From Candidatus Hermodarchaeota archaeon (GTDB lineage Archaea; Asgardarchaeota; Lokiarchaeia; Sigyniarchaeales; SOKP01), in the NCBI GenBank assembly GCA_048885925.1, contig JBHLLG010000001.1, positions 67,105-131,104 of the forward strand: 64,000 bases of DNA. Direction: 5' to 3'. Made by a program: the position numbers and the translations under genes. This document shows, in pieces, positions 11,435 through 61,142 of the stretch. The stretch's first letter is position 1; every line of letters begins with the position of its first letter. The notes below the pieces were generated by a model, which was not told where the DNA came from, made no database searches, and saw only the letters and a program-made list of their open reading frames with translations.

Positions 11435-11646
11435 TTAGATCACCTTTTAACAAATTAAATTTTCCTATTTTATTTATTTACAGTTCTGATTACCTTCTTT
11501 TGGTTATTAAATTAATACAAATATTGATAGAGTGAAATCTCAAGCATTTTGAGATTTACTAGTTATTATAAAATCTTTTTTCTAGACATTATTAATTTTA
11601 ATAATGATAGCAAAAAGTATAAGCCATTGAAATTTGAGGCTTAAAG

Positions 11647-11769
11647 TCATATACTACTCATTTTGGGAGATTTTATATCATCTAACTGAAAATTTATAAC
11701 TCCATGAAAGTTATAATTTTTGTATATTGCCTCAACAGGCAATTCCATACTTGAGAGGTCTTTGATCAT
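11647..11769 (-). CDS. Putative 40-aa small protein / leader peptide
   Basis: AGGTGG SD then ATG; MIKDLSSMELPVEAIYKNYNFHGVINFQLDDIKSPKMSSI*; followed by a hairpin and T-run. Confidence 0.35.
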   Translation of the reverse strand: MIKDLSSMELPVEAIYKNYNFHGVINFQLDDIKSPKMSSI

Positions 11770-12602
11770 ATGAAAATCCACCTAAGTAATACTCTTATAA
11801 TATATTTATTATTAACAATAATATTCCTATATAATATTTAATAAGGGCGCAGATATTTAAATTTTTGTATTCTTATTGATATGTAGAGGCATTTAGCCCT
11901 TAAAGGGCACTTTTAGAATCAATAAATCCGAAAAGAATCCTTTTTATATTTTATAAGTTGGTTAGATTTGTAATTATAATCCTAATTATTTTTAAATTAA
12001 TACAAGCTTTATAATATTGAATTAAATCCATAAAGACTTCTTAAAATCGCAATAAAATTTTTAGATTTAACTAAAAATCTTCGAGATTAGGAGTTTGGCT
12101 CTAATCCTAATTATCATGGAGTTAAAGTCAAAATTCCAATACTTGTGATATAAAAGTGAAAAAAATAAATGGAAGAAATTCATGTACTAAAATTAAAGAT
12201 AATTCTAGCATTTCGAATCATTTATTTTTTCATAATTAAGAAATTCTACATTAACTCTGAATCAATAGTTTAAGAGAAAACAAAATGAATTTTGAATAAC
12301 CTTCAAAAAAATAAATACTTCTTCTCACTCATTTCATTATAAATTTTCAACTAATCGCTTACTACATAATAAAAAAGTTAGATTATTAATTAAATTCCAT
12401 CAATAAGTGAGAAATTGTATCTATATTCATAATTGAAAGATTATATGAATCTTGAATTGAGTTTTCAGATAAAATTGTCAGATCTAATTTTTTTATTTTG
12501 ATATTTATTAGAATTTTTAATGTAGCAATAATTGATTCTAAATATAATTCGAATTTAATCATTATTCAAATGGGGAGAACATAAATTCGATCAAGTAAAT
12601 TA

Positions 12603-13445
12603 ATGTCTTTAGAAGAAGCTATATCTACTTATGTTCAAAATGGAGACTTGGTTGGTATTGGTGGACTATCTTTTTGGAGAAAATCAATTAGTGCTTGTAG
12701 AGAAATTATAAGGCAAAATAAAAAAGACTTAGCAATTTGTACTTTTGTGGGTGGATTTGAAGTTGATATGTTAATCGCAGGAAGATGCGTCTCTGAAGTG
12801 AGATCTTGTTTTGTTGGAATGGAAATTTTTGGTATGGCTCCACATTATCGAAAAGCTGTTGAATCTGGTTCGATTAAAATATCTGAAGAAAGCGAAGCGA
12901 CTATTGCTTTAGGGTTAAGAGCATCCTATTTAAAAGTACCTTTCATGCCCTTAAAAGGTCTTATCGGGACAGATATGCCAAAAGTTAGAAATGATATTAA
13001 GCAAATTGAAGATCCTCTTGGTTCGGGAACTCAAGTAATGGTAGTGCCTAAGATAGATTTAGATGTAGCAATAATTCATGTACCCTATGCAGATGAATTT
13101 GGTAATGGTAATATTACTGGTGCTGTATGGATGGATGCGGATATGGGAAAAACTGCGAAAAAAACAATTATAACATGTGAAAAATTAGTGGAAACAGAAG
13201 ACATTCGCTATTTACCAGGGAAGGCACAATTACCTTTACAAACTACTAGTGCTGTTGTTAAATTACCCTTTGGAGCTCACCCAACTTCATGTTTTCCTAT
13301 TTATACATTTGATCCACTTCATATTCAATGTTATTTAAAATCTAATTTTGAAGATTATAGAAAAAAGTTCATAACAAATAAAACAGATATTCAATATCTG
13401 GAAGAAAGTGGTGGAATACAAACAATATTTAACGTTTTATTATAG
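12603..13445 (+). CDS. CoA-transferase subunit A (glutaconate CoA-transferase GctA-like)
   Basis: MSLEEAI..GDLVGIGG, LGLRA..VPFMP, DVAIIHV..ADEFGN, LPFGAHPTSC. Confidence 0.88.
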   Translation: MSLEEAISTYVQNGDLVGIGGLSFWRKSISACREIIRQNKKDLAICTFVGGFEVDMLIAGRCVSEVRSCFVGMEIFGMAPHYRKAVESGSIKISEESEATIALGLRASYLKVPFMPLKGLIGTDMPKVRNDIKQIEDPLGSGTQVMVVPKIDLDVAIIHVPYADEFGNGNITGAVWMDADMGKTAKKTIITCEKLVETEDIRYLPGKAQLPLQTTSAVVKLPFGAHPTSCFPIYTFDPLHIQCYLKSNFEDYRKKFITNKTDIQYLEESGGIQTIFNVLL

Positions 13446-13457
13446 GAGGAGAACATA

Positions 13458-14336
13458 ATGAGTGAACAATCAAAGGATTATACTATAGATGAAATGATGA
13501 CTATTTTAATGGCTCGAGAAGTTAAAAATGATGATGTTATGATAGTTGGTGTTGCAACTCCTATGGTTTGGGCTGCATTTACTTTAGCAAAATTAACTCA
13601 TGCACCTGATGCAATATATCATTATATTATGGGAAACACTTTCGTGATGGAACCACGCCGAGTTTCTTTATTATATCTTGAAATGAATACCGCAAGAGCT
13701 TATCGATTTCAGGATAGTGTGGAATGTACATTAGAATCCCTCCCTTCTGATAAGTTGACTACCATTGAATTTTTTAGACCCGCTCAAATTGATCAATATG
13801 GGAATAGTAATAATATCTGCATAGGAGATTGGAATAAACCAAAAATTAGACTTCCTGGAGCTGCGGGAATACTTGATTTCAGTATGTTTTATGCTCGTGG
13901 ATCTTTCCTTTATACGCCTAGACATGATAAAAGGACCTTTGTACCAACTGAAAAACTTGATTTTATATCGGGAGTAGGGTTCCCAGAAGGTAAACCTTCT
14001 ATATGTGGAGGGGCTGGTCCTCAATGCGTAATTACTAACTTAGCATATTTGGATTTTGAAAATAAAAGAAAAATAATGAGGTTAAAAACAATTCATCCTA
14101 GTATTAACCTTGAAACTATAAAAGAATCTACGGGATTTGAACTAATTATCCCAGATAGACTTAATCAGACTGCACCTCCTACAGTAAAAGAAATCAAACT
14201 ATTAAGAGAAAAAGTAGATCCCCTAGAAATAAGAAAGTTAGAAGTCCTTGCTGGCAAAGAACGGGAAGAATTATTAAGTTATGTTATAGAAAAAGAATTA
14301 GCAATGGAAAATAGATTTCCTAAATTATTATTATAG
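13458..14336 (+). CDS. CoA-transferase subunit B (GctB-like)
   Basis: AQIDQYGNSN, PKIRLPGAAG, VITNLA, STGFEL, PPT..E..LLREKVDP. Confidence 0.88.
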   Translation: MSEQSKDYTIDEMMTILMAREVKNDDVMIVGVATPMVWAAFTLAKLTHAPDAIYHYIMGNTFVMEPRRVSLLYLEMNTARAYRFQDSVECTLESLPSDKLTTIEFFRPAQIDQYGNSNNICIGDWNKPKIRLPGAAGILDFSMFYARGSFLYTPRHDKRTFVPTEKLDFISGVGFPEGKPSICGGAGPQCVITNLAYLDFENKRKIMRLKTIHPSINLETIKESTGFELIIPDRLNQTAPPTVKEIKLLREKVDPLEIRKLEVLAGKEREELLSYVIEKELAMENRFPKLLL

Positions 14337-14420
14337 CTAATAAAACTTAAAATAGCTTTTACAATAAGATTGTGTTAAAAATTAGAAGTTTTAAAAAAGA
14401 TTTTATTATTGTTAATTTTA

Positions 14421-14454
14421 TTTACTATAAAACAAAATAATGTACTATAGTAAA
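14421..14454. promoter_or_regulatory. Inverted repeat / candidate operator upstream of the AbrB-ligase fusion
   Basis: TTTACTATA (14421-14429) and TATAGTAAA (14446-14454); palindrome TACTATAGTA at 14443-14452. Confidence 0.3.
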
Positions 14455-14474
14455 CATATTTTTAATTAATTGTT

Positions 14475-16289
14475 ATGAAAACAGCAAAAGGTAGAATTTC
14501 AGAAAAGAAATCAGGTAATCGTGGATATAAAAGCTGTTGGGTTTACATTCCAAGTAGTATATCTAAAAATGATTATTTTCCATTTAAGGATAAGGAAGTA
14601 GTCTCAATAGAGTTGAATGGAGATCAATTAATAATTAGTAAAAATTATGATCTTTATCAAATAACGAAAAGATATGGTTTAGATGACGCAACCTTGTCAA
14701 ATTTAGTAGAAAAAAAAGCATTTATTAATAAAGATCTGCCTTTTATTTACTTTGAAGATGAGCTTTTTTCTTATTCTGACACAAATAAAAATTCGAACAA
14801 GATTGCTAATGGACTTTTAAATTTAATTAGTAAGTTAAAATTAAATAACCCAAAAATAGCACTATTACTCCCAAATTGTCCTGATTTTATTTTTTGTTGG
14901 CTTGGTATAGCAAAAACTAGAAGCGTGCTAGTAGCAATAAATTATTTATTGTCAGAAGGTAGTTTGGAGTATATTTTGAAAAAAAGTAATACAGAGATAT
15001 TAATAATTGATTATAATTATCTTCCTAAAATTCAAAAAATTTATACTAAACTAACACAGATAAAGAAAATTATTATTTATCATCCTCCGAGTGATTTTAA
15101 ATTTAAGGATAATTTTATTGATTTTCAAGAGATTTTATTTGATAATGATAAAAATCCTTATATCAATATTCAAAATTTTAATCCATTAGAAATCTGCTAT
15201 ACTTCAGGTGCTACAGGAAAACCTAAGTGTGTTTTGTATAGGAATTATTTTACCTTATCAGGAATAAGTATAGGAAGTGAATTGGAAGATATTGGTTTCA
15301 GTCGAATTTCTCAGAAAATATATTGTTCTTTACCTCTAGCTCACACTTTTACACGTTATTTAGCAATAATCCCTGCATTATATTATAATGGTTCGATAAT
15401 AATAGCTAAAGAATTTAATAAATCAATATTTTGGGATGATATTAATAGATATAAGCCAGATTCCTTTATCTATAACGGTAAATTTTTATTAGCTTTAGTT
15501 AATCAACAACCAAGGAATTCAGATAGAAAACATTCGTTAAAATATGCCTTTGGATTTGGTGCTTTAAAATCAGTATGGGAAGCATTTGAAAGAAGATTCG
15601 GTTTACCAATTTTCGAAGTATGGGCAGTAGTAGAAGGGATAGGAATTACAATGAATACAATAGGTTCTAAAGGAGGCAAAATTGGTTCTATAGGAAAACC
15701 AGTGAAGGGTTATGAGTTAAAAATTGTTGATACCAATGGAAGAGAATTACCTCCAGGAAGAAATAATATTGGTGAAATTGTATCAAGGACAAAGCTTCCT
15801 TTTGAATTAGAATATTACAATTTACAAGAATTAATATCCATGAAAATAACCCAAAACAGATGGGTTCACACTGGTGATTTCGGTTATAAAGATAATGAAG
15901 ATTTTATCTACTATCTAGGTAGACAAATAGATATGATTCTTAGAGGGGATGAAACTTTTTTTTCAACAGATATTGAAAAAATAGCCGATTCACACCCAGG
16001 AGTCGCTGAATGTGCTGCATTTGAAGTATCTATTGAAAATTCAACAAAAAAGGAGATAAAAATATGTGTTGTGGTCAAAGAAGATATGGAATTGAAGTAT
16101 AATGACTTCCATTACTACCTTAAGGAGAATTTGGCATACTTTATGGTCCCAAGGTTTATAGAATTTAAAGAAGAATTACCAAAAAATCTGAATGAATTAG
16201 TTCAAAAATTTATTTTAAAAGAAGAATGGGAAGACAAAAGTTTAAGAAAAAATACTTTTGACACTATTGAGCAAAAATTTTTAGATTAA
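14475..16289 (+). CDS. AbrB/SpoVT-like DNA-binding domain fused to a CaiC-like AMP-binding (acyl-CoA ligase) domain with degenerate motifs
   Basis: N-terminal WVYIPSSI..FPFKDKEVVSIEL..LIISK; YTSGATGKPK, HTGD, LAYFMVPRFIEF. Confidence 0.8.
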   Translation: MKTAKGRISEKKSGNRGYKSCWVYIPSSISKNDYFPFKDKEVVSIELNGDQLIISKNYDLYQITKRYGLDDATLSNLVEKKAFINKDLPFIYFEDELFSYSDTNKNSNKIANGLLNLISKLKLNNPKIALLLPNCPDFIFCWLGIAKTRSVLVAINYLLSEGSLEYILKKSNTEILIIDYNYLPKIQKIYTKLTQIKKIIIYHPPSDFKFKDNFIDFQEILFDNDKNPYINIQNFNPLEICYTSGATGKPKCVLYRNYFTLSGISIGSELEDIGFSRISQKIYCSLPLAHTFTRYLAIIPALYYNGSIIIAKEFNKSIFWDDINRYKPDSFIYNGKFLLALVNQQPRNSDRKHSLKYAFGFGALKSVWEAFERRFGLPIFEVWAVVEGIGITMNTIGSKGGKIGSIGKPVKGYELKIVDTNGRELPPGRNNIGEIVSRTKLPFELEYYNLQELISMKITQNRWVHTGDFGYKDNEDFIYYLGRQIDMILRGDETFFSTDIEKIADSHPGVAECAAFEVSIENSTKKEIKICVVVKEDMELKYNDFHYYLKENLAYFMVPRFIEFKEELPKNLNELVQKFILKEEWEDKSLRKNTFDTIEQKFLD

Positions 16290-16327: not shown

Positions 16328-17074
16328 TCAATTTGTTATGCTTTCTATATTGGGGTATAATTCTATCTTTCGACCTTTTTCTTTAAGATAGATTAAATCA
16401 TTCTCTGATAATTTATCAATATGATATTTTATTGTGTTGCGTGATAGGTTTAGAATTCGAGAGATTTTAGAAGAATTAATTCCAGGATTTTTTTGAATAA
16501 TTTCTAAAACTTTTTCAGTTGTCTCTGACTTTGTGGGTAAATTCTTGAAATGTTCAATTGATTCAATAGAGGAAGTAATTGGAAAATATATTGTATATTG
16601 GCCATAGTTTTCTTTTTTTATAATATGGTTCTTCAATAAGACATCTAAATGCCATTGTAATTGTCCTTTCTGTAAATCGCAATTTCGCAATAATTCATTT
16701 TGATGTATTCCAGGATTTTTAAGAATTTCTCTTAATATATTCAAACGATTTTCATTTTCAAATATATCAGTAAGAGTTAAATAAGAACTTCCTTTTTTTA
16801 TAAAGGGTCTTTTTATAATATATCCTCTATACTCTTTTAAAGTAAGTACTTCAAAAACAGTAATTAAAGAAATGATTGTGATTAAAATACAAATAATAAT
16901 TACTTCTATAGAAAAAATTCTTTCACGACCAAATACATCATCTTTGAAAGTTATAACTTGATATAGAATAACCGAGAGTAAGATAAGAGAAAAGATTATC
17001 AGTAAAAATTTCATTCCAAAAATTAAATAAAATTTTTTAACTCCCATTTTGCTCATTAGTTTTTTTATAACCAT
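16328..17074 (-). CDS. Membrane-anchored tandem winged-HTH (ArsR/MarR-like) transcriptional regulator
   Basis: Two N-terminal TM helices; ENENR..I..NPGIH.NEL..WHL and NPGI..S.ISR.L.LSRNTIKYHI repeats. Confidence 0.85.
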   Translation of the reverse strand: MVIKKLMSKMGVKKFYLIFGMKFLLIIFSLILLSVILYQVITFKDDVFGRERIFSIEVIIICILITIISLITVFEVLTLKEYRGYIIKRPFIKKGSSYLTLTDIFENENRLNILREILKNPGIHQNELLRNCDLQKGQLQWHLDVLLKNHIIKKENYGQYTIYFPITSSIESIEHFKNLPTKSETTEKVLEIIQKNPGINSSKISRILNLSRNTIKYHIDKLSENDLIYLKEKGRKIELYPNIESITN

Positions 17075-59564: not shown

Positions 59565-61142
59565 TTATTTATTATTAATTTGAATATTAAATCGTTCTCT
59601 TAATTTTCGGTGTATGACTTTTCCAGAACCAGTTCTAGGCATCTCTTCGGAATGAATGCATAAAAATTTTTTTGGTATCTTAAATCTGGCTAACTTATCC
59701 TCACAATATTGGCGCATTTCTTTATTAAAAGTATCTAAGTCAACTTCTTTATTTAAAACACAACAAGCTGTTACACTTTCTCCCCATTTGTAATCATTCA
59801 ATCCAACTACAGCACATTCTACAACTGAAGGATGTGAGACAACTACTTCCTCTACTTCAGAAGGATAAACATGTTCTCCCCCTGTTATAATCATATTAGC
59901 TTTTCGATCTACTAAATAATAGAATCCATCTTCATCCTTCTTCGCCATATCACCTGCGCTAAAATACTCCCCTTTAAACGACTCCTTAGTTTTTTCTGGT
60001 AGTTTATAATACTTATCAAACATTTGTGGACCACGGGAATAGAGTTCACCAATTTTTCCTATAGCTACAGGATTTCTGTCCTCATCCAGTATTTTTATAT
60101 TATCAGTTCCAATGCATTCTTTTCCGATTGAACCTAATTTATTCATTTGATCTTCAGGTCTAAGAAGTGTTACTAATCCTGCTTCAGTTGAGCCATAGGC
60201 TTCAAAAAGTTTAGTTTTGCTAAAAAGTTTCATAACATCTAATTTCATTTGTTTTGTAGCAGGAGCAGATGAGGTCAATAATGTTGTTATGCTGCTAAGA
60301 TCATATTTTTGTTTAATTTCATCTGGAAGGCTTAATATTAAATTATAATGAGTAGGTATCATTGAAGTAAATGTTATTTTCTCACGATCAATTATTTTCA
60401 ATACCTCCTCAGGTTCAAATTTATATTCTATATGAATATAAACCGGAGCTCCAAGGTAAGTAAATACAAATGAATAAAAAGTAGAATTTACATGAGATAA
60501 TGGCATTAAAATCATACCATAATCTTGAGGAGTGAAAGAAAATTCTGCTTCATTAATTAAGAAAAAGGAGATATAGGAACGATGTGAACGTATAACTCCC
60601 TTTGGTTTCCCTGTTGTGCCAGAAGTATATAGAATTACCCATGTATCCTCTGGATCAACTTTTATAGAAGGATATATATTTTCACCCATTTCTACAAGAT
60701 CTTCAAAATATTTCCAACCTTCTGCCGGTTTATCGGCAATCAAAACGCGTTCTACATCCTCAAATCCCAATTCTATAGCTCTCTCCCATATTTTTTCTGT
60801 CGCTTCATAGAATCTGGATTCTATAAATAACCATTTCGCATCTGAATTATTAATAATAAATGAAATATCATCTGGATGTAAACGAAAATTTAATGGTACA
60901 ACAATAAATCCTCCCTTAGCTGCTGCTACATATAATTCCATAAATTCAATGCAATTATTAGATAATATCGCTACTTTATCCCCTTTTTTTATTCCACTTT
61001 TAAGTATTCCATTAGCAAGTTTATTAGTCCTTTCATTTAATTCTTTAAATGTTAATTGACGTTTTATATCTTTCAGAGCAAGTTTGTTTGGATATTTATT
61101 AGCATTTACATTAATAATTTCGCCAATATTAAGCCATGTCAT
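59565..61142 (-). CDS. Long-chain fatty acid--CoA ligase (AMP-binding)
   Basis: YTSGTTGKPKG, YGSTE, AGD, DRK, PRTGSGK all intact. Confidence 0.93.
   Translation of the reverse strand: MTWLNIGEIINVNANKYPNKLALKDIKRQLTFKELNERTNKLANGILKSGIKKGDKVAILSNNCIEFMELYVAAAKGGFIVVPLNFRLHPDDISFIINNSDAKWLFIESRFYEATEKIWERAIELGFEDVERVLIADKPAEGWKYFEDLVEMGENIYPSIKVDPEDTWVILYTSGTTGKPKGVIRSHRSYISFFLINEAEFSFTPQDYGMILMPLSHVNSTFYSFVFTYLGAPVYIHIEYKFEPEEVLKIIDREKITFTSMIPTHYNLILSLPDEIKQKYDLSSITTLLTSSAPATKQMKLDVMKLFSKTKLFEAYGSTEAGLVTLLRPEDQMNKLGSIGKECIGTDNIKILDEDRNPVAIGKIGELYSRGPQMFDKYYKLPEKTKESFKGEYFSAGDMAKKDEDGFYYLVDRKANMIITGGEHVYPSEVEEVVVSHPSVVECAVVGLNDYKWGESVTACCVLNKEVDLDTFNKEMRQYCEDKLARFKIPKKFLCIHSEEMPRTGSGKVIHRKLRERFNIQINNK

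Follow-up and report, generated by a model that had tools for sequence, protein, structure and literature searches.

The window analysed here is a 64,000-nucleotide stretch of contig JBHLLG010000001.1 (positions 67,105 to 131,104, forward strand; GenBank assembly GCA_048885925.1) from a Candidatus Hermodarchaeota archaeon, and the subject of this report is a gene in which an AbrB-like domain is joined to the body of an ANL (AMP-binding) enzyme, together with the palindrome that precedes it. A preliminary description made from the sequence had drawn this fusion gene at 14421..16289. The open reading frame (ORF) is real and its start was moved to 14475, since the frame opened at 14421 meets three stop codons between 14421 and 14684; what begins at base 14421 is the inverted repeat that the same description had noticed upstream of the start. 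The strings it had quoted from the protein were all found: YKSCWVYIPS...LIISK (residues 18-56), YTSGATGKPK (242-251), WAVVE (383-387), TGD (466-468), RQIDMILRGDET (483-494), and PKNLNEL (569-575). The gene and its upstream region are laid out as follows.

14475..16289, plus strand: ORF of the AbrB-like domain and ANL (AMP-binding) body, 604 amino acids, stop codon included in the coordinates
14421..14434, no strand assigned: candidate operator site A, containing the TTTACTATA half-site; its first base precedes that of site B by 20 bp
14441..14454, no strand assigned: candidate operator site B, TGTACTATAGTAAA, which departs from TTTAC-N4-GTAAA at one base and ends 20 bp before the ATG
14475..14648, plus strand: AbrB/MazE/SpoVT-like swapped-hairpin domain, residues 1-58, as indicated by AlphaFold2 (AF2) topology, hhalign, and dimer prediction
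14649..14729, plus strand: helical linker, residues 59-85 (AF2 helices 60-66 and 74-85)
14730..15899, plus strand: ANL N-terminal subdomain, residues 86-475 (Pfam AMP-binding, residues 84-439, E 2.8e-49)
15198-15230, plus strand: P-loop (motif A3), residues 242-252, part of the ANL N-terminal subdomain
15900..16199, plus strand: ANL C-terminal subdomain, residues 476-575 (Pfam AMP-binding_C, residues 500-571, E 9e-9)
Within the ANL C-terminal subdomain (residues 476-575), plus strand: degenerate motif A8, GRQIDMILRGDET, judged from column counts and comparison with bacterial relatives
16179-16199, plus strand: degenerate motif A10, PKNLNEL, residues 569-575, with Leu575 at the expected position of the catalytic lysine
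16200..16286, plus strand: family-specific C-terminal tail, residues 576-604, in which K578, W585, and D596 are nearly invariant

More than 100 full-length homologues of ~600 amino acids were found, with identities to the window protein of 42-94%. The word-indexed homologue search returned 324 relatives, the best 120 of which were mostly ~600 amino acids long and covered the query from residue 1; the source names of these 120 were Promethearchaeota/Lokiarchaeota, Thor-, Hel-, Hermod-, and Hodarchaeales, and one "miscellaneous Crenarchaeota group" bin. Among the loci retrieved with their neighbouring genes, L001-L028 carried Asgard-type labels (Promethearchaeota, Thor-, Hel-, and Odinarchaeota) or the label "uncultured archaeon" and most matched from residue 1, and in the 51 loci L029-L079, nearly all bacterial by label, the match began at residue 44 or later, i.e., without the N-terminal domain (N-domain). 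By sequence comparison the AbrB-ANL fusion is a conserved ~600-amino-acid family of Asgard archaea. The N-domain profile occurred once in this genome and was present in only eight of 21 related genomes including this one (six of the 12 others of the genus and one of the eight others of the order), so that the fusion gene is patchily distributed. One Thorarchaeota bin carried two fusion paralogues (L011 and L014).

The inverted repeat pairs TTTACTATA at 14421-14429 with TATAGTAAA at 14446-14454, 21-54 bp before the ATG, and sits within a 30-nt repeat of 70% complementarity (14405-14434 / 14441-14470). Seven matches to TTTACNNNNGTAAA at one mismatch were counted in the window against 6.3 expected in this AT-rich DNA, and the repeat alone is therefore unremarkable. 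Alignment of the 160 bp before the start codons of orthologues revealed a common 14-bp palindrome, TTTAC-N4-GTAAA. The 200 bp upstream of 26 orthologues, i.e., the window and 25 loci (related loci are not independent), were then scanned, and the best match to TTTACNNNNGTAAA per locus was exact in nine, had one mismatch in eight, two in six, and three in three. Where the match had at most one mismatch (17 loci), the distance from the end of the palindrome to the ATG was 18-41 bp, except in L012 (78 bp) and L025 (51 bp). As controls, 934 stretches of 200 bp were drawn at random from these loci, of which 0.5% held an exact match and 2.2% a one-mismatch match; when the upstream regions were shuffled 500 times, an average of 0.89 loci, and never more than 4, came within one mismatch vs. 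the 17 observed. Judged against these controls, the palindrome is conserved across the orthologous loci far beyond chance. Across 20 aligned sites TTAC was invariant and the other half was retained as G in 17, T in 19, A in 20, A in 20, and A in 17, and the central four bases varied between loci (TATA, GGTA, AATA, GGTC, TTAA, ATAT, AGTA, GGCA).

The flanking genes varied between loci, and the fusion gene was the sole constant neighbour of the palindrome. Most orthologues had a second TTTAC/TTACT element upstream of it, at 20 bp in one clade and at 13 bp in the other. Seven further loci were taken from related genomes, some of them probably duplicates, and an exact site together with site A 20 bp upstream was present in L115, L117, and L118. 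Bacterial homologues without the N-domain had no match at one mismatch or fewer in any of 28 loci, and the best matches of three Asgard paralogues without the N-domain had one, three, and three mismatches. A conserved palindrome that travels with the gene in this way fits a DNA-binding regulator. Exact copies in the whole genome (3.9 Mb) numbered ten, two of them intergenic; the palindrome is thus rare and is no general promoter element. In the 28 Asgard loci the intergenic DNA (43.8 kb) contained 18 exact sites and the ~334 kb called coding only two, one of these being the site upstream of the L025 gene. On this comparative evidence the protein probably binds an operator of its own gene and regulates itself. 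Upstream of the orthologue in L018 (6360-6440) there are two tandem copies of the unit ATTACT-N7-ATTACGTACGTA, as if the operator had been duplicated.

The N-domain comprises residues 1-58 and was modelled by AF2 with strands at 7-13 and 18-24, a helix at 27-30, and strands at 43-48 and 51-56, i.e., a beta-beta-alpha-beta-beta topology, with predicted local distance difference test (pLDDT) values of 68-86 within the whole-protein model; folded alone it had the same topology and a mean pLDDT of 70.5. Pfam finds no AbrB domain in this region, and the resemblance to AbrB/SpoVT that the preliminary description had read from the letters has support from profile-profile comparison, fold search, and dimer prediction. 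As hhalign target we used an alignment of 22 PF04014 domains from related Asgard genomes. Against it the N-domain alignment (alignment A3) reached a probability of 83% (E 9e-6) and a broader alignment including small homologues (alignment A4) reached 90% (E 1.5e-6), each over 42 columns that run from the second strand through the end of the fourth, and a control using residues 61-132 of the same proteins gave 0.7%. Relative to PF04014 the profile alignment showed a two-residue insertion, and an FPF signature replaces the usual Leu-Gly-hydrophobic turn. The sub-threshold pNTSase1 match was the only Pfam match to residues 1-70 and was rejected.

Foldseek returned no match for the N-domain at E <=0.001. 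Its ten best rows were weak (E 0.4-2.2) and were all MazE or VapB, C56, C68, or 5itj ("histone-like protein"); C56 and C68, which are archaeal plasmid proteins, and 5itj are taken by us to have the AbrB-type fold. SpoVT (2w1t) and Sso7c4-type chains were also among the fold-search rows, and the AbrB-type fold of Sso7c4 is stated in the title of PDB entry 2l66. In a second look with VIA-align all six entries at Z >=2 were 5itj/5itm, Sso7c4 (2l66), VapB, or C68 (Z 2.1-2.5). Low structural scores are expected for a monomer removed from an intertwined dimer. The homodimer predicted for residues 1-68, a check of the kind that the preliminary description had proposed, had an ipSAE score of 0.52, and none of three controls rose above 0.00; among proteins solved as pairs 20 of 30 passed the mark used for a dimer, and among those solved as single chains one of 23. 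The dimer runs agreed in at least 97% of contacts (155-166 contacts, pLDDT >=69). The predicted cross-chain strand pairs were beta1-beta3', beta2-beta2', and beta4-beta4', i.e., interleaved hairpins, as expected of a swapped-hairpin barrel. The pass may be due in part to likeness to solved AbrB-type dimers. Mean pairwise identity was highest in the N-domain (58%; the two ANL subdomains had 53% and 50%), and the family mean net charge was +7.6 for residues 1-31 and -3.2 for residues 32-58. By these comparisons and models, residues 1-58 are most likely an AbrB/MazE/SpoVT-related domain, and they are predicted to form an intertwined homodimer.

An exhaustive profile search for the N-domain retrieved 314 proteins at E <=0.001. 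Among the 150 of these that were listed (including P0137-P0269) most were standalone proteins of 50-130 amino acids with the signature ..IYIPS..DS.FPF..GE.V.I.., and some standalone homologues (P0151, P0205, P0208, P0171) contained two to eight tandem copies. When 85 small homologues were compared with Pfam, 13 had weak PF04014 matches (one above the cut-off), four weak Peptidase_A4 matches, one a SymE_toxin match, and 64 nothing; the other two were an AMP-binding match in a fragment of a fusion protein and the multi-repeat P0171 with several unrelated sub-threshold families. The protein-atlas neighbours of the small homologues were archaeal "hypothetical protein" clusters, most commonly from Bathyarchaeota, and a cluster bearing PF04014 ranked 12th (score 0.85). 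Judged by its relatives in sequence, the N-domain is a member of a family of its own, made up of small archaeal proteins most of which Pfam does not recognise. The weak SymE_toxin match in one small homologue and the weak MazE_antitoxin matches in 13 of the 85 could be taken to mean that the N-domain binds RNA or another ligand in a SymE-like or antitoxin-like manner, with a post-transcriptional role or as part of a toxin-antitoxin-like pair. No toxin-like partner gene was conserved beside the fusion gene, and an RNA-binding N-domain would leave the conserved DNA palindrome without a role; such a function is very improbable.

The body of the protein is a full two-subdomain ANL fold. Pfam scored AMP-binding at 168.4 bits (cut-off 29.9) and AMP-binding_C at 36.6 bits (cut-off 24.5), Foldseek matched the body with E-values down to 1.5e-37 and template modelling scores of 0.80-0.87 (target-normalised), and the AF2 whole-protein model, built on an alignment of 111 sequences, had a mean pLDDT of 88.9. 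The nearest NCBIfam models were ligases of the PRK06187, PRK06155, and CaiC types, all far below their cut-offs (258.4 vs. 476, 254.7 vs. 722, and 235 vs. 651). Catalytic motifs, including A8, were defined after PMC8388817, according to which the A10 lysine is in contact with the alpha-phosphate when the enzyme adopts the adenylation conformation and is strongly conserved among aryl-, acyl-, and fatty-acyl-CoA ligases.

Residue columns were counted in an alignment of 111 family members. The A3 P-loop, whose pattern is (S/T)(S/T/G)G(S/T)TGxPK and which reads YTSGATGKPK in the window protein, was retained almost throughout (K251 in 111/111, G245 and P250 in 110/111 each), as were the aspartate of A7, pattern (S/T)GD (D468, 109/111), and the glutamate of A5 (E387, 110/111); A5 reads WAVVE instead of YGxTE, with Trp for Tyr in all 111 and Thr in 23. 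G482 was also present in all members. R483, the first position of A8, was Arg in 72 members and Lys in 27. The hinge residue of column 485, Ile in the window, was S in 58, T in 16, N in 15, M in five, I and K in four each, and D and E in three each, and the A8 glycine (G491) was retained in 58, so that the A8 region of the window protein (RQIDMILRGDET) departs from the Rx(D/K)x6G pattern in both hinge and loop. Column 575 of A10 was L in 39, F in 27, E in 23, K and R in six each, T and Q in three each, and M in one, and Leu575 of the window breaks the Px4GK pattern of the catalytic lysine. The missing A10 lysine, noted earlier for the window protein, is thus a systematic loss: 105 of the 111 members lack it. 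The paralogue at 59565-61142 of the window, on the minus strand, does have YGSTE, DRK, and PRTGSGK intact, as had been described, and when aligned it ends ~25 residues before the end of the fusion protein.

Bacterial relatives (33 aligned; L055 was unreadable in the A8/A10 region) had Lys at A10 in 24 and Arg in eight, and nearly all had an R-x-K-D and RRGENIS-type A8 with K or R at position 485. K578, three residues past the missing A10 lysine, was found in 104 of the 111 family members and is kept in the bacterial relatives too, and it is therefore no family-specific replacement. A FastTree phylogeny built from 47 sequences, with the in-window paralogue as root and read for topology without support values, placed the fusion family as one clade nested among bacterial sequences, many of these with Arg at A10. 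The deepest fusion branches had Arg (P0074, P0109) or Gln at this position and later branches had Phe, Leu, Glu, or Thr, which suggests that the A10 lysine changed to arginine before the fusion and that constraint on A10 and A8 was lost after it. P0074 from Helarchaeota, an early branch whose A10 residue is Arg and whose A8 loop is the canonical RRRGENIS, is a candidate for a still-active intermediate between enzyme and regulator.

These motif patterns bear on how much catalysis the family has kept. Nucleotide binding appears preserved and the determinants of both half-reactions in the mobile C-terminal subdomain are gone. The comparison supports the view that the window protein is no canonical ligase, its CoA-ligase turnover having probably been lost or become very slow, with the odds of an outright loss about even. 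The fusion protein could instead be a bifunctional enzyme and repressor in the manner of BirA or PutA, in which a ligase active through the arginine or another lysine would also bind the operator, with the acyl-adenylate or the substrate as corepressor. The near-invariant P-loop, A5 glutamate, and A7 aspartate are in keeping with this, as are the bacterial sister clade with Arg at A10 but without any DNA-binding domain, the sequence of P0074, and the AF2 model, which is closest to the adenylate-forming conformation (root-mean-square deviation of 3.4-4.3 A, vs. ~10.5 A to thioester-conformation entries). The window protein and most of the family do not fit it, having Leu, Phe, or Glu at A10, Ser, Thr, Asn, or Ile at the hinge, and a degenerate A8 loop, and the variability of column 575 means that there is no constraint there. 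We regard a bifunctional protein as rather unlikely.

Palindromes occur at three further kinds of position in the Asgard loci. Several relatives have an operon of DUF2284, B12-binding corrinoid protein, and RACo genes directly preceding the fusion gene, and the palindromes lie 63-155 bp upstream of its first gene, often as TTTACGNNCGTAAA:

L003: 1153-1231
L005: 4245
L008: 4173 and 4258, both exact
L009: 4111 and 4196
L011: 4236
L012: 1922 and 1989
L024: 4244

DUF2284 was identified by Pfam in L001, L003, L005, and L008, and the B12-binding and RACo proteins in L001, L002, L003, L005, L008, L009, L011, and L024; the operon genes of L012 were identified by position only. No palindrome was found before the DUF2284 gene of L001. 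The window lacks this block, and its fusion gene directly follows two CoA-transferase subunit genes. Exact palindromes also occur just after the fusion gene:

L013: 9821
L015: 4538
L016: 9816
L017: 9816
L026: 9822

The site in L013, L015, L016, and L017 lies ~100 bp upstream of a conserved gene of ~170 amino acids without a Pfam family, and the next ORF in L026, 113 amino acids long, begins ~275 bp further on. L008 and L009 have a DUF6125 gene at the same position after the fusion gene. Sites with one mismatch were also seen behind or before solute-binding protein genes: L013, L014, and L016 have one in the gap that separates an SBP_bac_5 gene from its neighbour. In L023 such a site precedes the gene at 13174-14805 by 79 bp.

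The preliminary description had considered it possible that the protein controls the CoA-transferase genes beside it, and this was not borne out. The 1.17 kb upstream of these genes in the window (including 12400-12602) held no palindrome at two mismatches or fewer, except at 11446 beside the MFS gene, and none was found upstream of the CoA-transferase genes of L011 and L024. L001 had one one-mismatch match at 157 bp and L005 four two-mismatch matches, and CoA-transferase genes occurred within 5 kb upstream of the fusion gene in only four of the 28 loci. One-mismatch matches in the whole genome (359, of which 73 were intergenic) are uninformative in DNA of 29% GC. The two exact intergenic copies lie at C6:46162-46175, 23 bp upstream of a gene for 182 amino acids, and at C116:6001-6014, 88 bp upstream of a gene for a membrane protein of 333 amino acids; these genes have no obvious relation, chance is a possible explanation, and the two sites were rejected as parts of a regulon. 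The homologues in this genome of the DUF6125-like, RACo, and other neighbour genes had no upstream palindrome at two mismatches or fewer, the DUF6125 homologue on C39 lying 98 bp from the contig end.

The genes around the fusion gene encode corrinoid methyl-transfer components, enoate reductases, thiolases, acyl-CoA dehydrogenase, and CoA-transferases. Such metabolic neighbours would suit an ordinary metabolic ligase, whose N-domain would serve in dimerisation or protein binding and whose upstream palindrome would be the site of another factor or a promoter element. AbrB-type barrels are first of all dimerisation modules, and the structural matches of the N-domain are weak. The motif, however, follows the fusion gene through differing neighbourhoods in which no other candidate regulator is constant, and its rarity in the genome speaks against a promoter element. 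Within the N-domain, the basic charge of the N-terminal half and the strong conservation fit a nucleic-acid-binding surface, and the degenerate catalytic motifs also argue against an ordinary ligase, which we consider improbable. Two further observations concern the DNA on either side of the fusion gene and the CoA-transferase genes. Downstream, at 16328-17074 on the minus strand, lies a gene for a protein of 248 amino acids whose N-terminal part is hydrophobic and which has two winged-helix domains (HTH_HVO_0163_N 5.8e-21, HTH_24 1.6e-20). It resembles a membrane-anchored regulator, and its place beside the fusion gene is conserved only in L010 and L024. The 1.17 kb from the MFS transporter gene to the first CoA-transferase gene (11435-12602) contained no ORF of at least 60 amino acids and no Rfam match at E <=1.

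We propose, with a probability of roughly 60%, that the gene encodes a one-component, autoregulated transcription factor of Asgard archaea with a sensor derived from an ANL enzyme. The AbrB-like, twofold-symmetric dimer would bind the palindrome with one half-site per helical turn, the half-site centres being 9 bp apart. Lying 20-54 bp before the ATG, sites A and B would overlap or adjoin the promoter or the transcription start, a position that would suit repression of its own gene and of a small local regulon. The ANL body would act as the sensor by binding ATP or AMP together with a carboxylic acid, or an acyl-adenylate or acyl-CoA derived from these, and ligand binding would change the affinity for DNA, possibly through movement of the C-terminal subdomain. 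The genes of the neighbourhood suggest that the sensed ligand is an organic acid. The preliminary description had proposed an inactivated pseudoenzyme serving as sensor and transcription factor; the degenerate A8 and A10 motifs and the conserved palindrome uphold its outline, and the retention of the P-loop, the A5 glutamate, and the A7 aspartate leaves room for residual or bifunctional activity, so that full inactivation does not follow.

Several observations weigh against this proposal. Residues 1-70 had no PF04014/AbrB match in Pfam even at E <=10. An hmmsearch of PDB sequences gave no matches with the N-domain profile of alignment A3 and insignificant rows only with that of alignment A4 (MazE at E 0.56-0.9), and in a wide VIA-align search with a maximum Z of 2.7 the MCE-domain chains (Z 2.6-2.7) were level with or above the AbrB-type chains, so that structure comparison by itself does not settle the fold. 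The case for DNA binding comes from comparative genomics. Site B of the window itself has one mismatch to the consensus, no convincing site was found before the fusion gene in three of the 26 loci (L005, L019, L024) and a poor one only in L011, and palindrome scans identified no further regulon member in this genome. With regard to catalysis, the eight of 33 bacterial relatives with Arg in place of the A10 lysine have no DNA-binding domain, and members of the clade with Arg at A10 may carry out adenylation without the canonical lysine; K578 could conceivably substitute for it, and the near-invariant P-loop may indicate that ATP chemistry, beyond mere binding, still matters.

Going further than the proposal itself, we tentatively suggest, at somewhat less than even odds, that in several Asgard lineages a whole ANL enzyme has been turned into the allosteric sensor of an AbrB-type DNA-binding dimer. 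The large rotation of its C-terminal subdomain, no longer needed for catalysis, would then act as the switch by which binding of ATP and a carboxylic acid, or of the acyl-adenylate, leads to release from TTTAC-N4-GTAAA; the regulon would include the DUF2284, corrinoid protein, and RACo genes, and the early members having Arg at A10 and an intact A8 would be bifunctional intermediates. Very few Asgard transcription factors have both a predicted binding site and a predicted sensor, and the fusion family offers both. A 14-bp candidate operator and a well-understood ligand-binding fold make it testable in vitro without a cultured host. If the proposal is true, the ANL superfamily joins the enzyme folds that have been recruited as sensors in one-component regulation. 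The family seems to preserve a series of steps (A10 lysine to arginine in bacterial relatives, fusion to the AbrB-like domain, and loss of A10 and A8) and is therefore a useful case for the evolution of an enzyme into a pseudoenzyme sensor. Sites before the operons of corrinoid protein and RACo genes suggest that these archaea regulate methyl transfer or the catabolism of acids.

The TTTAC-N4-GTAAA palindrome is a new element beyond the preliminary description. Neither an AbrB-ANL fusion nor a TTTAC-N4-GTAAA operator was found described in the literature covered, which left out most subscription journals, and a regulator combining an AbrB-type DNA-binding domain with an ANL-derived sensor has most likely not yet been described. 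A close parallel in architecture is SpoVT of Bacillus, which has an AbrB-type N-domain and a C-terminal GAF sensor domain. SpoVT, Sso7c4, and haloarchaeal PhaR have an N-terminal swapped-hairpin DNA-binding dimer followed by a larger, modulating C-terminal domain, an arrangement that is also predicted for the window protein; the C-terminal module of the window protein differs from theirs in being a complete ANL adenylating-enzyme fold of ~520 amino acids.

Enzymes that double as repressors provide a second comparison. PutA joins a ribbon-helix-helix domain to a proline catabolic enzyme, and BirA is both biotin protein ligase and repressor, with an acyl-adenylate as its effector. The window protein resembles them in having a putative DNA-binding domain N-terminal to an enzyme, and in BirA and PutA the ligand state controls operator binding; unlike these fully active enzymes, which have other DNA-binding and enzyme folds, the fusion family has lost the A10 lysine and the A8 determinants. 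Enzyme folds have also been converted to regulators that no longer catalyse, as in BzdR, which has an enzyme-derived, non-catalytic sensor domain. PspR of Haloferax is an enzyme fold turned regulator, according to PMC10948481. If catalytically dead, the window protein would be a conversion of the same sort as BzdR and PspR, with the difference that its sensor is an ANL fold, whereas theirs are shikimate-kinase-like and phosphoenolpyruvate-synthetase-like, respectively, and are joined to other DNA-binding domains.

Among true enzymes the nearest are the CaiC, PRK06155, and FATP-like acyl-CoA synthetases, to which the protein is homologous over residues 65-591 (NCBIfam 235-258 bits); the best PDB sequence matches were AuaEII (4e-35) and FATP2 (6e-35). 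The window protein differs from these synthetases in its N-terminal, putatively DNA-binding domain and its C-terminal tail, and in not having kept the A8 hinge, the A8 loop, and the A10 lysine.

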